Shown one piece after another: positions 56,219 through 59,953 of a stretch of DNA of 64,000 bases. The translations under genes were made by a program, and so were the position numbers. Source of the stretch: a virus. Lineage: Duplodnaviria > Caudoviricetes. The notes beneath the pieces were generated by a model that searched no databases, was not told where the DNA came from, and saw nothing but the letters and a program-made list of their open reading frames with translations. Numbering within the stretch: position 1 is the first letter of the stretch; every line of letters starts with the position of its first letter. The DNA lies in IMG/VR virus record IMGVR_UViG_3300028887_000067, positions 192,001 to 256,000 of that record, one strand, 5' to 3'.

Positions 56219-56623
56219 ATGGTGCCAGCAAATATGGAAAAATCGCTACCTGTTGTACAATCGTCGACAGCTGAGCGGGAAGCTAACATCATCAACTATT
56301 GTATAAAGTTGCAGAAAAAGATCAAGTATTGCGACACCGCTATGGCTGTATTGCATGCCTTGATTGTAGTCGACGCGGTGTCGTTATTTTTCTCAATGCT
56401 AATATACGCAAGCGCGGATGCCGCTTTGGCCGGCGTTATTTTTGTGGTATCTCTCAGCCTCGCGCCATTGTTGATACTGGGCATCATTTTCTGTCCTACT
56501 CCGAATCCATACGGAACCCAGCTCATGGTAGCGGCAAACAAGTTGCCGAACAACACGGATGCAATGATGCACTTGAAACGCCGACTCATCGACGAAGCCG
56601 AAGACGCCATAAAATGGCATTAA
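56219..56623 (+). CDS. Two-TM membrane protein
   Basis: GGAGG RBS; two hydrophobic helices. Confidence 0.65.
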   Translation: MVPANMEKSLPVVQSSTAEREANIINYCIKLQKKIKYCDTAMAVLHALIVVDAVSLFFSMLIYASADAALAGVIFVVSLSLAPLLILGIIFCPTPNPYGTQLMVAANKLPNNTDAMMHLKRRLIDEAEDAIKWH

Positions 56624-57270
56624 TCGTCCCAGAACTTCTCGATCGTTCCGACCAGTGCGTATTTACGCAACGCGCTTATGCAGGAATGGTATGACGAGTA
56701 GTGGTTCTGCACATTGAGAGCAATGTCCTTCAATGTCGCTCCCGGATTCGCCTGCACGTATTCCTTGGCGCGTGCGATGAAACGCGAGAACGAAGTTGAC
56801 CTGGAGCCGGCCTGTGTGCCGGCTTCAAGCTTTTTGTCCATGTGCCTGAGTTCGGGAAGCCAGAAATCGAGGTCGCCCGGCAATGGTTCGGCTTTCAGGG
56901 CGATTCTTGCGAACCTCTGGGGCGTGTCGTCGAGTATTCCCTGGTATTCGCCAACCATTATATAGCCAATCCCCAGTGCGCGGAGCACCTGTCTGGCATC
57001 GTTGTTCAGCGTACAAGGACAGGCGACATACACACGTGTGGCTGTATCGAGCCACCTGGTCGCTTGCGCAATGACCTTGATGTTCAGCTGTTTCTTGAGC
57101 TCGATAGCGATCACCTCGCCGTCGTTGAAGTATACCAGGTCGCACGAACCCGATCCGCCGATGCCTACTTCCTCGGCCATCTCCATGCCCTTGAAAAGGT
57201 TGGCGTCCTTTATGGCGCGTCCTACCTCTACCTCGCTAATGTCGAACTTGAATTGCTTGCGTCGTCTCAT
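56620..57270 (-). CDS. PD-(D/E)XK nuclease-like protein (MmcB/DUF2161-like), predicted leaderless
   Basis: E..., CDLV, AIELK..L, 'QA', 'YVA.P', LGIG; TATATT-N6-ATG. Confidence 0.7.
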   Translation of the reverse strand: MRRRKQFKFDISEVEVGRAIKDANLFKGMEMAEEVGIGGSGSCDLVYFNDGEVIAIELKKQLNIKVIAQATRWLDTATRVYVACPCTLNNDARQVLRALGIGYIMVGEYQGILDDTPQRFARIALKAEPLPGDLDFWLPELRHMDKKLEAGTQAGSRSTSFSRFIARAKEYVQANPGATLKDIALNVQNHYSSYHSCISALRKYALVGTIEKFWDD

Positions 57271-57461
57271 GCCGAAAATATAGCTAAATGTCCATAAAAA
57301 GCGAAATCCATCGCGTTTGCGATGGATTGCCCCTTGTGCTTCTCTTTCCTCGTGTACTTCGATTTTAGCTGTACCACCCTTGTTCGAAGGGTGGCGCCGT
57401 TGCTGGTTCCGGCAACCCTCGCCATGCGCTGTCGCGCCGTTTCGGTAGCTTTCGTCTTCAT
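57267..57461 (-). CDS. ArfA-like (alternative ribosome-rescue factor-like) small basic protein
   Basis: GAGGA RBS; 'LRTRVVQLKSKYTRKEKHK' matches the ArfA F/LRxRV...YxRKxKH pattern; terminator hairpin lies before the stop codon. Confidence 0.6.
   Translation of the reverse strand: MKTKATETARQRMARVAGTSNGATLRTRVVQLKSKYTRKEKHKGQSIANAMDFAFYGHLAIFSA
57296..57333 (-). terminator. Intrinsic terminator inside the ArfA-like ORF
   Basis: AATCCATCGC-AAAC-GCGATGGATT, then TCGC-TTTTT on the minus strand, about 9-10 codons before the TGA. Confidence 0.65.
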
Positions 57462-57527
57462 ATTGCTTTCCTCGCGTTGATACAAGTTTAGCAATTTGCT
57501 ATATTTCGGTCAACCAAAGAGGATCCG

Positions 57528-58010
57528 ATGGACACGAAAGACACACTCAAGCTCAGCAACCTGTATAACGCTAAAAACCTGACTACCTTGGTCGGCGACC
57601 AACTCAAGGCGCTGAAGACGTACGACCCGCGCAAGTTCGCCCAGGTAATCGAGAACCAGCTGTGCCTGAACAGCGGAAACATGCCGAAGGCGTTCAAGGA
57701 CGTGCTCAAGTTCAACGTACCCATACTGCAGTCCGAGCTGAAGCCTTACGTGTATGAAGATAAGTTCGGCCGTGGCACCGTGCCGACTGACACTTATTTC
57801 GTCAAGAGCTGTGGAAAGGTCAGCGCGATTATCAAGATCATCGGCGGGGAGACCGGCATCGGGACGGTCAGCCCGTCGAAAATACCCGATGACGTGTACG
57901 TGTATACGGTCGGGGAAATCAGCGAGAAGGTGGTCGCCACCATCAAGCTGTTCACCGACGAGATCGAACGTCTCCGCGCCGAGGAACGGGTGAAGAAGGA
58001 ACAGGATTGA
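57528..58010 (+). CDS. Hypothetical protein
   Basis: TTTGCTATATTT promoter motif and GAGGA RBS. Confidence 0.7.
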   Translation: MDTKDTLKLSNLYNAKNLTTLVGDQLKALKTYDPRKFAQVIENQLCLNSGNMPKAFKDVLKFNVPILQSELKPYVYEDKFGRGTVPTDTYFVKSCGKVSAIIKIIGGETGIGTVSPSKIPDDVYVYTVGEISEKVVATIKLFTDEIERLRAEERVKKEQD

Positions 58011-58495
58011 TGAGAACCATCGGCTTGTGCGCACTTGCGGCCGTGCTCGTTGCCATTTCGGTGAAGAACGCATTCCGCGACTTCGTCCGCAAGTGCAACG
58101 GCATGATTCGTCTGGTGGCGTGCGCCGGCGGGTCCTATATGTTGTTAAGGTGCGTCGTGTTTCACGCCGACCCCTATCACTCGGCGATCGTATATGTCGC
58201 GTTGAGCGAGACGGAATGTAAATCTGTGATACAGGATATGTGTGACAAGTACCCGAAGGTATTCGAATATGATGACATACTCGGCATTAAACGGTCCCGG
58301 CTCAAGACAAGCGGGTTTTTTATCTCGCCGAATGCGAAATTGAAGCAGACGATTCCTGATTGGGACGACTTCAGACATTTCCTAAAAAGCCTCAACAATG
58401 TCCCACCCTTCTGGCGCAATCCCGTGCCTGTAGACGACATTATCAGTGATTTCAAGTCACGATGGAAACAAACTATTATAAAATATGGAACATAA
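58010..58495 (+). CDS. Membrane-anchored hypothetical protein
   Basis: TGATG overlap; hydrophobic N-terminus. Confidence 0.55.
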   Translation: MRTIGLCALAAVLVAISVKNAFRDFVRKCNGMIRLVACAGGSYMLLRCVVFHADPYHSAIVYVALSETECKSVIQDMCDKYPKVFEYDDILGIKRSRLKTSGFFISPNAKLKQTIPDWDDFRHFLKSLNNVPPFWRNPVPVDDIISDFKSRWKQTIIKYGT

Positions 58496-58504
58496 GGAGA
58501 TCAT

Positions 58505-59896
58505 ATGACAAAGCGCATATCAGAATCCGTAATCGCCAAGGCGAGACGTACGATTGGGCACCGCTCGGGCCGCGCCACTTCGGTGAGCCCGCGCCTTCCT
58601 AAGCAGTACAAGAAGAAGAACCCGAGCAAGTGGATAATCCACCACTTGACCCAGACGGACCTGTACAAGTATTCAATGGGCCAGCTATACTTCCACAAGC
58701 ACCGCAACGTGCAGGCCCGCTGGGAGTTCAAGCTGCGTTCCAAGGGGGTCCGTCTCGACCACCTTTACGAGGCGATCAACCTCGAGCTCGACCACCTCTG
58801 CACGCTTCGCTACACCATGACTGAACTGAACGGGCTCCGCGTAGTCGGCCCGTGGCTCGCTGAGGACTTCGTCCGTTACCTGAAACTCGTCCAGCTCAAC
58901 CGCGAGTACATCCATTGCGAATACGACCCCGATGACGAGTGTGGTCTCAAGATATGGGCCGAGGGACCGCAGATGGACGTGTTCTGGTTTGAGATTTACT
59001 GCCTCCAGATTGTCCAGCACCTCTATTTTGATGACCTTGAGATCGACTGGGACGCTTCCAAGGCAGCTCTCGACGAAGCTATCCAAAAGTGGAAGGCCGC
59101 CGCCGAACGCGGTATCAAGTTCACCATCTCTGACTTCGGTATCCGTCGCAGCGTCGACGACAATTGGAACGAGTATATGGTGTCCACCATGTTGAAGGAA
59201 CTCCCCGGCGTATTTGTCGGCACCTCCAACGTTTACCTCGCAATCAAGCTGGGATGCAAGGCCATCGGAACTTTCGCCCACGAACTCTACCAGGTTTACC
59301 AGGGCCTCGACTACATCAACCTCCGCATGTTCCAGGTTGCCGTGTTCGAGGACTGGATGCACGAGTTCGGCGGTGACCTCGGTATCGCTCTCTCCGACAT
59401 CGTCGGCTTCAAGGCATTCCTCGCCGACTTCGGTGGCGACGACCCGCGTGGCAAGCTCTACGCTAAGGTGTTCGACGGATGCCGTCACGATTCCGGCGAC
59501 CCGTACACGTGGGGAGAGATGCTAATTGCGCATTACCGGAAGTTGAAGATTCTGCCCGAGACTAAGATCGGCTGCTGGAGCGACTCCCTCAACGTCGACA
59601 AGTCCATCGCCATCGCGGAACACTTCAATCTCCGCATCAAGATCGCTTTCGGAATCGGCCAGTTCCTCTGCGCGAGCCTCTTGAAATTCAAGAACAATAC
59701 GGACAACCGCAAGCCGCTTTCCATGGTGATGAAGGTCGTCATGATCAAGGCGCACGACAAGGCCCCGTGGGTATGGGTCGTCAAGCTGTCCGACTCGGTC
59801 GGAAAGACGATGTGCCCCGACCAGGAGCGCATCGACCTGATCAAGCGTACGTTCAACTACAGTTCGATTGACGACGACCCCCCGAGCTGCCAATAA
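58505..59896 (+). CDS. pncB: Nicotinate phosphoribosyltransferase
   Basis: TDLYKYSM, DFG.RR, GTSNV, GTFAHE (phospho-His), R.DSGDP, SDSL, FGIG, V.K, KLSD..GK. This is the enterobacterial-type PncB signature rather than the NAMPT TDSYK/DFG.RG. Confidence 0.9.
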   Translation: MTKRISESVIAKARRTIGHRSGRATSVSPRLPKQYKKKNPSKWIIHHLTQTDLYKYSMGQLYFHKHRNVQARWEFKLRSKGVRLDHLYEAINLELDHLCTLRYTMTELNGLRVVGPWLAEDFVRYLKLVQLNREYIHCEYDPDDECGLKIWAEGPQMDVFWFEIYCLQIVQHLYFDDLEIDWDASKAALDEAIQKWKAAAERGIKFTISDFGIRRSVDDNWNEYMVSTMLKELPGVFVGTSNVYLAIKLGCKAIGTFAHELYQVYQGLDYINLRMFQVAVFEDWMHEFGGDLGIALSDIVGFKAFLADFGGDDPRGKLYAKVFDGCRHDSGDPYTWGEMLIAHYRKLKILPETKIGCWSDSLNVDKSIAIAEHFNLRIKIAFGIGQFLCASLLKFKNNTDNRKPLSMVMKVVMIKAHDKAPWVWVVKLSDSVGKTMCPDQERIDLIKRTFNYSSIDDDPPSCQ

Positions 59897-59905
59897 CTTG
59901 TTAAC

Positions 59906-59947
59906 CAAAGAATCCAGTTGCCACGCGACTGGATTCTTTGCTATATT
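59906..59947 (+). promoter_or_regulatory. 15-bp inverted repeat overlapping a TTGCCA-N18-TATATT promoter
   Basis: CAAAGAATCCAGTTG-CCACG-CGACTGGATTCTTTG immediately followed by C-TATATT-N6-ATG. Confidence 0.65.
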
Positions 59948-59953
59948 TTTCGC

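Follow-up and report, generated by a model that had tools for sequence, protein, structure and literature searches.

Can a phage gene for a back-up ribosome-rescue factor be built so that its own message lacks a stop codon? The question is raised by a small gene in the window, the 64,000-nucleotide (nt) stretch of DNA analysed here (positions 192,001 to 256,000 of IMG/VR record IMGVR_UViG_3300028887_000067), which belongs to the 308,245-bp genome of an uncultured jumbo phage (G000). The gene is a nominal 64-codon open reading frame (ORF) for an ArfA-like peptide on the minus strand (57267..57461, with ATG at 57461 and the TGA at 57269-57267 included), and it passes in frame through a hairpin and a U tract before that TGA is reached. 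Expression of arfA and brfA from stop-less mRNAs, by way of a stem-loop or terminator within the ORF and gated by trans-translation, has been described (PMC8012679), and the same regulatory layout, with a stem-loop in the ORF and 5' of the stop, is present here at the level of sequence. With moderate confidence, the gene is read as encoding a small basic, ribosome-binding peptide of the ArfA/DUF7230 lineage, a back-up rescue factor for ribosomes at the 3' ends of stop-less mRNAs. The protein would probably accumulate only when the transfer-messenger RNA (tmRNA) rescue pathway of the host is overloaded.

The sequence-only reading of this DNA had proposed a 64-amino-acid (aa) basic ORF with an ArfA-like motif, and the ORF was confirmed base for base, with LRTRVV at residues 25-30 and KYTRKEKHK at residues 35-43. 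A Shine-Dalgarno-like GAGGA (57469..57473, minus strand) can be read in the sequence 7 nt 5' of the ATG, and a consensus scan found a sigma-70-like promoter site farther upstream (57485..57513, minus strand; TTGACC, 17 nt, TAAACT, with TG preceding the second hexamer) that stands back to back with the plus-strand promoter of the gene at 57528. A 75-aa version with a TTG start at 57494 was rejected because that start falls within the small gene's own promoter-like site, and homologues begin at the ATG; a chance ORF was also rejected, since homologues are found and selection is visible in the codon positions. The conserved core of the protein comprises codons 1-43 (57333..57461, minus strand), as marked by an excess of third-codon-position differences and by alignments with DUF7230-type proteins and ArfA. 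It opens with the segment E-x4-R-x2-R-[VI]-x-G-T-x-N-G-A-T, continues with the strand-like L-R-T-R-V-V, and closes with a basic tail, K-x-K-Y-x-R-K-x-K-H-K (K-S-K-Y-T-R-K-E-K-H-K in the window protein), in which the Lys-His (KH) motif occupies residues 41-42.

A perfect 10-bp hairpin at 57305-57328 and a U tract, both ahead of the stop codon, had also been claimed, and both were found in place, though the U tract is interrupted. On the minus strand the stem is formed by AATCCATCGC (57328-57319) and GCGATGGATT (57314-57305), which enclose the 4-nt loop AAAC and make 10 perfect pairs, 5 of them G-C. The hairpin lies in frame over codons 45-53 (Q-S-I-A-N-A-M-D-F), begins three codons past K-x-K-Y-T-R-K-E-K-H-K, and has no in-frame stop ahead of it or of the U tract. 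On the 3' side of the stem follows TCGCTTTTTA (57304-57295), the U-rich tract UCGCUUUUUA of the minus strand (57295..57304), and the T tract is nearly invariant among relatives; a terminator scan flags both elements. Folding of the RNA in this region gave -24.7 kcal/mol (z = -3.05), with 0 of 200 shuffles folding as well, and Rfam matched no family on 56500-58100. The hairpin is a putative intrinsic terminator stem or, alternatively, a putative RNase III target that would give the same stop-less RNA. The U run ends at codons 55-56, some 8-9 codons short of the TGA, and a transcript 3' end is predicted at about 57296-57300, which would yield a product of about 55 residues without a stop codon. 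The read-through tail, Y-G-H-L-A-I-F-S-A (57270..57294, minus strand), is unconserved and probably rarely or never translated.

What the relatives of the gene preserve bears directly on whether this arrangement has meaning. Their DNA came from viral contigs, metagenome contigs and 59 Fibrobacter or Fibrobacterales genomes, and related loci were searched with sub-alignments of a 139-sequence set; in GenBank phage records the window gene had no match, either as DNA or as protein. The 18 close homologues, whose contigs reach 460 kb, give a gap-free alignment that extends from the N-terminus as far as K-H-K-G-Q-S-I-A-x-A-M-D-F-A-F, a stretch in which the hairpin loop codon is the sole variable residue, and beyond A-M-D-F-A-F they diverge fully in sequence and length. 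Among these 18, no variation occurs at Y36, R38, K39 or K41, conservation of H42 is at least 90%, and LRTRVV ranks with the best conserved segments. An exhaustive profile search gave 131 clusters at 50% identity, many of which continue after KHK with S-[ILF]-A-x-A-[MRGE]-D-F-[APS]-F and then unrelated tails, while others end 3-10 residues past KHK. By approximate pattern counts in the 139 family members, many of them misparsed, at least 65 are of the read-through type and at least 27 stop-terminated; for protein-only homologues (P0020-P0147) a hairpin was read solely from the encoded S-x-A..A-x-D-F motif. Excluded as spurious hits on the N-G-A-T-L-R-T-R motif were P0116, P0132 and P0146, with the long P0041, P0118, P0131 and P0144, which consist of repeated F-N-G-A-T-L-R-T-R-G-I units and look like translated DNA repeats, possibly CRISPR arrays.

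In nearly all relatives for which DNA is available, the hairpin starts 2-4 codons past KHK, with TT-C-C/G-C-TTTT on its 3' side. In 39 aligned relatives, 97.2% of cells in the stem are standard pairs, versus 35-55% after displacement of the 3' arm by 1-3 columns; a single position of the stem is occupied by C-G (24), A-U (9), U-G (4) or U-A (2), and in one locus (L095) the stem is compensated, as CTC/GAG. Strong conservation of the stem keeps covariation modest. Pairs of the U-G and G-U kind are frequent and are possible on the sense RNA only, and the structure is therefore placed there. The hairpin is borne by 73 distinct loci, on jumbo-phage contigs or as single-copy Fibrobacter genes, and in every one the reading frame is free of stops from KHK to where the stem ends. 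Past the stem, the median length of open frame in these 73 loci is 20.5 codons, against 15 and 18 in the two alternative frames, and about 21 would be expected at random. In L027, a 31.8-kb IMG/VR viral contig, an unrelated 15-bp hairpin takes this position and the frame remains open; the gene concerned (L027:1259-1468) is of DUF7230 type (23.5 bits) and runs stop-less into this very strong hairpin directly after KHKK, in what looks like an independent instance of the layout.

Differences counted by codon position indicate where selection on the protein ends. In the core they amount to 0.22, 0.21 and 0.46 at positions 1, 2 and 3 among phage-type sequences, and to 0.14, 0.11 and 0.36 in Fibrobacter. 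For the Fibrobacter set, the 12 codons of the hairpin and U tract still show 0.06, 0.04 and 0.26, and the next 12 codons, those of the tail, show 0.71, 0.71 and 0.70. From the third-position excess it follows that the hairpin codons are both structured and translated, and the random level in the tail means that selection sees a protein ending at the U tract, despite the lack of a stop codon there. The claim of an internal, terminator-like hairpin is therefore borne out as a matter of sequence layout: it is conserved with covariation, no stop stands ahead of it in the relatives, and conservation ends at the U tract.

The phage genome offers another context for the same hairpin. The motif GCTATATT occurs in 30 copies in its 308,245 bp against about 6 expected, and its consensus, tTTGCTATATTT, is of the extended -10 kind (TGnTATATT). 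Such sites often come after a hairpin and T run, and in about 10 cases an ATG follows TATATT by 6-7 nt, suggesting leaderless mRNAs. One copy, GCTATATTT (57276..57284, minus strand), overlaps the tail of the small ORF; it is the element of the next gene (56620-57270, minus strand) and no part of the switch itself. The ATG of that gene, at 57270, overlaps the TGA of the small ORF as ATGA, and a leaderless transcript is suggested because the ATG lies only 6 nt beyond the -10 hexamer. The earlier remark that the tail doubles as the neighbour's promoter was accordingly correct, the last 9 codons overlapping both its promoter and its start codon.

On these grounds the gene might encode an ArfA/DUF7230-type peptide while its hairpin is an ordinary terminator of the phage's modules, the missing stop having no regulatory meaning and the product being mostly full length through read-through, or released in some other way without tmRNA control. 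Several observations lean toward that explanation and weigh against a switch. The small gene's hairpin is also the terminator half of the usual terminator-promoter module, in which a hairpin and T run are set directly ahead of GCTATATT (for example at G000 181238, 199276, 224135 and 251941). The U tract is broken by CGC (UUUCGCUUUUU; UUU-CGC-UUUUU) and is not an uninterrupted canonical run. Near-identity of the hairpin among relatives means that the absence of stops within it does not amount to many independent observations. Ordinary stop codons are found in the close phage homologues L012-L014 and L096-L099 and in all DUF7230-type genes examined, so the non-stop switch is optional and the peptide can work without it. 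The viral L012-L014 (243-248 kb for L012 and L014, 55 kb for L013) have a stop 7-8 codons past KHK and no hairpin, and L066, from a Fibrobacterales metagenome-assembled genome, has a disrupted 3' arm and a TGA 9 codons after the core, followed by a different canonical terminator; these four are natural variants that lost the in-frame hairpin.

Nevertheless, an ordinary terminator is considered unlikely. The same in-frame hairpin, with no stop preceding it, is kept in Fibrobacter chromosomes where no promoter of that kind follows, and in none of 73 loci does a stop stand ahead of the stem. A check of the upstream gene at just one other module (NAPRTase, G000 251941) showed its stop codon ahead of the hairpin. 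The full-length protein is not what selection maintains, the tail being unconserved, and any transcript ending at the hairpin without a stop must go through a rescue pathway in any case.

If the layout is that of a stop-less message, is the encoded peptide in fact a relative of ArfA? The proposal of an ArfA-like protein stood in part: distant relatedness through DUF7230 was found for the C-terminal half, while Pfam ArfA gave no match and the N-terminal half is unrelated. Profile comparison likewise gave a marginal result when made directly and a strong one through DUF7230. On the direct side, several results count against kinship. Pfam ArfA (PF03889; gathering score 25.5 bits) matched neither the window protein nor any of the 139 family members at E up to 1, and had no match in the phage genome; E. 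coli ArfA, as positive control, scores 89.5 bits. NCBIfam also gave no match for the window protein. Direct hhalign of the family against ArfA, with the ArfA side made up of 35 enterobacterial sequences only, gave probabilities of 2-5% (P 0.008-0.023) over 20-27 columns. The N-terminal region of ArfA, with its helix (residues 1-24, including A18, needed for activation of release factor 2, RF2), is covered by no alignment, global alignment to ArfA gave E 0.66, and the N-terminus of the family is different; the KGKGS segment of ArfA is absent from the family. An AlphaFold2 model of the window protein from an 18-sequence alignment (predicted local distance difference test 57; a single short helix at residues 9-18) was uninformative and was not used.

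The segment aligned by direct hhalign is itself orderly, however marginal the score. From the window family it takes T-L-R-T-R-V-V-Q-L-K-S---K-Y-T-R-K-E-K-H-K, the alignment covers residues 24-46, and L25-R-T-R-V-V30 lies opposite ArfA F25-R-Q-R-V-E30. BLASTP against E. coli ArfA (from NC_000913) recovered only K-x-x-Y-x-R-K-x-K-H. In ArfA, F25 and Q27-E30 pair with the beta-sheet of RF2, and the KH motif, common to ArfA and BrfA, occupies the mRNA entry channel (PMC8012679). The residues of the window protein aligned to these functional ones are L25, T-R-V-V (27-30) and K41-H42, and a basic C-terminal tail of the ArfA type with KH is thus present.

The stronger connection passes through DUF7230 (PF23876; PHROGs 18092 and 2701), a family of small phage proteins of unknown function. 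The window protein matches DUF7230 at 16.8 bits (E 0.0075), over residues 33-45 only and below the 27-bit gathering score, and matches PHROGs 18092 and 2701 at E 1.6e-6 and 2.5e-5; of 139 relatives, 94 match DUF7230 with E no higher than 1 (lowest 6.7e-8). A profile of 18 DUF7230-type phage proteins aligned by hhalign with ArfA residues 12-47 at 95.8% (E 7.6e-9), and the same profile aligned with the window family at 96.9% (E 1.9e-10, residues 23-43); reversed or column-shuffled targets, used as controls, gave E of at least 0.02. One protein, L102, passes the DUF7230 cut-off and also matches Pfam ArfA at E 1.3e-4. It begins M-K-K-R-N-P-H-A-K-I-L-R-S-P-L-F-R-M-R-V-V-Q-D-K-K-K-Y-T-R-K-E-K-H-K, and a homologue search started from it returned one sequence and nothing new. 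Because the intermediate family matches both sides, the window family is likely homologous to ArfA, in the C-terminal half only.

These comparisons also bear on the suggestion that the ArfA similarity is convergent or compositional, the gene encoding a generic basic nucleic-acid-binding protein and the hairpin serving mRNA stability, a small RNA processed by RNase III, or a site at the DNA level. The lack of a direct Pfam ArfA match and the shortness of the lysine- and arginine-rich motif speak for it, as does the annotation of a 3' fragment of E. coli arfA as a small regulatory RNA, by which hairpin-derived RNAs can have roles of their own. It is nonetheless thought very unlikely: the signal is lost in column-shuffled and reversed profiles (E of at least 0.02, versus 1e-9 to 1e-10), conservation falls on specific positions in a set order (L/F-R-x-R-V, then K-x-Y-x-R-K-x-K-H), and the G·U pairs assign the structure to the sense RNA, with no match in Rfam.

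Kinship with ArfA being the better account, the likenesses and differences can be set out. The RF2-dependent ArfA (YhdL; beta- and gammaproteobacteria) is also small, with 72 nominal codons against 64 here and an active form of about 55 residues in both. It shares the strand-like segment hydrophobic-R-x-R-V (ArfA F25 to E30), the basic tail Y-x-R-K-x-K-H with the KH motif, a stem-loop in the ORF about 10-14 codons after KH and hence an mRNA without a stop, and an unconserved, partly hydrophobic read-through tail. Unlike ArfA, the window protein has 22 N-terminal residues unrelated to the ArfA N-terminus and helix 15-24, lacks KGKGS, and belongs to a family carried by a jumbo phage and Fibrobacter; its hairpin resembles an intrinsic terminator, whereas that of E. 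coli arfA is documented as a target of RNase III. DUF7230 proteins are likewise phage-borne and share the C-terminal half, R-x-R-V-V-x-x-K-K-x-Y-T-R-K-E-K-H-K. However, they start N-P-x-A-K-x-L-x-x-P-x-F, much closer to ArfA, where the window clade has K-E-S...N-G-A-T-L, and the genes examined (L102, L105-L148) end at ordinary stop codons. By its different N-terminal half, the window family is best described from sequence as a clade separate from DUF7230, though related to it. BrfA (YqkK) of Bacillus subtilis is similar in its small size, in a rho-independent terminator placed before the stop, in regulation by trans-translation and in a C-terminal KH motif in the mRNA channel (PMC8012679). It has no detected sequence similarity to the window protein and is reported as restricted to Bacillus; protein and profile searches against all Protein Data Bank chains (BrfA included, as 6SZS according to PMC8012679) found nothing at E up to 10. 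Finally, g10 of Citromicrobium phage vB_CbaS-RXM is also a phage-borne gene annotated as ArfA (PMC8953757), an annotation made without analysis of a non-stop layout or a functional test.

The DUF7230 or ArfA-like mini-genes also occur in 63 records of cultured Acinetobacter phages (133, ZZ1, Acj61, KARL-1 and others), where they are annotated as hypothetical or left unannotated; the Acinetobacter phages listed with DUF7230 homologues have genomes of about 160-170 kb, a T4-like size.

A counterpart of the gene in bacterial chromosomes gives some indication of its role. In a profile search, the family gene with its hairpin was found in 56 of 201 sampled Fibrobacterota genomes, mostly in one copy. 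Pfam ArfA has no match in 61 Fibrobacteraceae genomes, and a survey of 1,956 genomes of the Fibrobacteres-Chlorobi-Bacteroidetes (FCB) group reported no ArfA (PMC11633108). That a stop-less gene of this design also sits in chromosomes as a single copy speaks for a back-up task in housekeeping and not for a phage-specific quirk. Gene neighbourhoods in Fibrobacter are variable (histidine phosphatase, AbiEii, NERD) and uninformative. In a tree of the 45-residue core, Fibrobacter stands apart from sequences of viral or metagenomic origin, but so short an alignment does not tell which way any transfer went. Three Fibrobacter genomes that were checked contain tmRNA, two full-length RF-1-domain genes, presumed to be those of RF1 and RF2, and a third ORF with a weak RF-1-domain match. 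This third ORF (G003:C9:388304-388468, in an open frame of 164 aa, and G001:C30:28764-28961) might encode a factor of ArfB type alongside the stop-less ArfA-like gene. The phage genome has two tRNA-Ala genes only and no tmRNA, SmpB or release factor gene, and the phage would therefore depend on host partners. By itself, the Fibrobacter homologue hints at Fibrobacter as the host of the phage; the related metagenome contigs probably derive from rumen samples.

From these elements a mechanism can be proposed. Transcription from the promoter at 57513-57485 would produce an mRNA of about 180 nt without a stop codon, ended at or cut in the hairpin and U tract (57328-57295), and ribosomes would run to its 3' end without meeting a stop. 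Normally, tmRNA-SmpB of the host would tag the product of about 55 residues for degradation. Once trans-translation is saturated, as when infection damages mRNA or tRNA on a massive scale, untagged peptide would escape, its basic tail with the KH motif would enter the empty mRNA channel of stalled ribosomes, and the L-R-T-R-V-V strand would recruit a class-I release factor, so that hydrolysis would follow and the ribosome would be freed, presumably to the benefit of the phage. That such a device is used against tRNA- or mRNA-cleaving defences is speculation.

The peptide could also occupy the vacant mRNA channel, in whole ribosomes or in 30S subunits, in order to block or reprogramme translation, whether to shut off the host, to impose a block akin to hibernation or to protect ribosomes, with or without gating by tmRNA. 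Rescue activity of the peptide is an inference, only the half made up of strand and basic tail is ArfA-like, and there are documented cases of phage proteins that target host ribosomes early in infection (PMC10914614). Such a role appears quite unlikely, since a single-copy chromosomal homologue of the same design in many Fibrobacter genomes is a better fit to a housekeeping back-up, the conserved L-R-T-R-V-V aligns with the ArfA strand that recruits RF2 (PMC8012679), and a non-stop design that destroys its product in healthy cells is hard to square with shut-off. Back-up rescue thus remains the preferred role.

The surroundings of the gene may be described briefly. The downstream gene at 56620-57270 (minus strand) encodes a product of 216 aa that matches PHROG 12193 (E 3.7e-13, function unknown), with faint VRR-NUC and NucS matches, and that by these similarities may be a PD-(D/E)XK-type nuclease; it comes after the ArfA-like gene in L004 as well. 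A nicotinate phosphoribosyltransferase gene (58505-59896, plus strand; NAPRTase at E 1.7e-53, along with its N-terminal domain) lies within a nicotinamide adenine dinucleotide (NAD) salvage cluster, and its stop codon is followed by a 16-bp hairpin and then by a GCTATATT promoter. Other sites of the promoter motif in the window include 57499-57506 (plus), 59941-59948 (plus), 54748 (minus) and 49386 (plus), and close divergent pairs of tTTGCTATATTT stand at G000 269747/269777, 274390/274410 and 246748/246775.

Small-peptide back-up rescue by recruitment of release factors is, to our knowledge, known from only three narrow cases, ArfA, BrfA and ArfT. With its regulatory principle already defined by arfA and brfA, and an ArfA annotation in a phage already made, the gene is not a new kind of system. 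The searchable literature holds no description of the divergent N-G-A-T-L-R-T-R-V-V clade, of its stop-less design in phages or of its presence in Fibrobacter. A broader reading, to be held tentatively and at somewhat less than even chances as a whole, is that ArfA is the proteobacterial tip of a far wider and so far unrecognised superfamily of tiny rescue peptides that takes in DUF7230 and the N-G-A-T-L-R-T-R-V-V clade and extends over many phages, Fibrobacter and other bacteria; that the tmRNA-gated non-stop switch has been kept or re-invented within it, even with unrelated hairpins (L027); and that gated copies in jumbo phages free ribosomes stalled by infection-related RNA damage or by defence systems that cleave RNA only once trans-translation of the host is exhausted. 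If true, a virus would here encode its own sensor of translational stress, perhaps acting together with the release factors of an FCB-group host.

A 2021 review held that more such rescue factors probably exist and are hard to find by sequence (PMC8012679). The locus and its relatives offer a sequence-based handle of that kind, a conserved basic peptide with a KH motif that runs stop-less into a conserved terminator hairpin. The Acinetobacter phages with DUF7230 genes are tractable systems for the function of the family, and L066 and L012-L014 are useful natural controls. Should the peptide prove active, ArfA-type rescue would extend to the FCB group; a function open to testing would be given to DUF7230, which is common in phages, cultured T4-like Acinetobacter phages among them; and large phages would be seen to import a stress-gated ribosome-rescue factor beside their tRNAs and repair enzymes.

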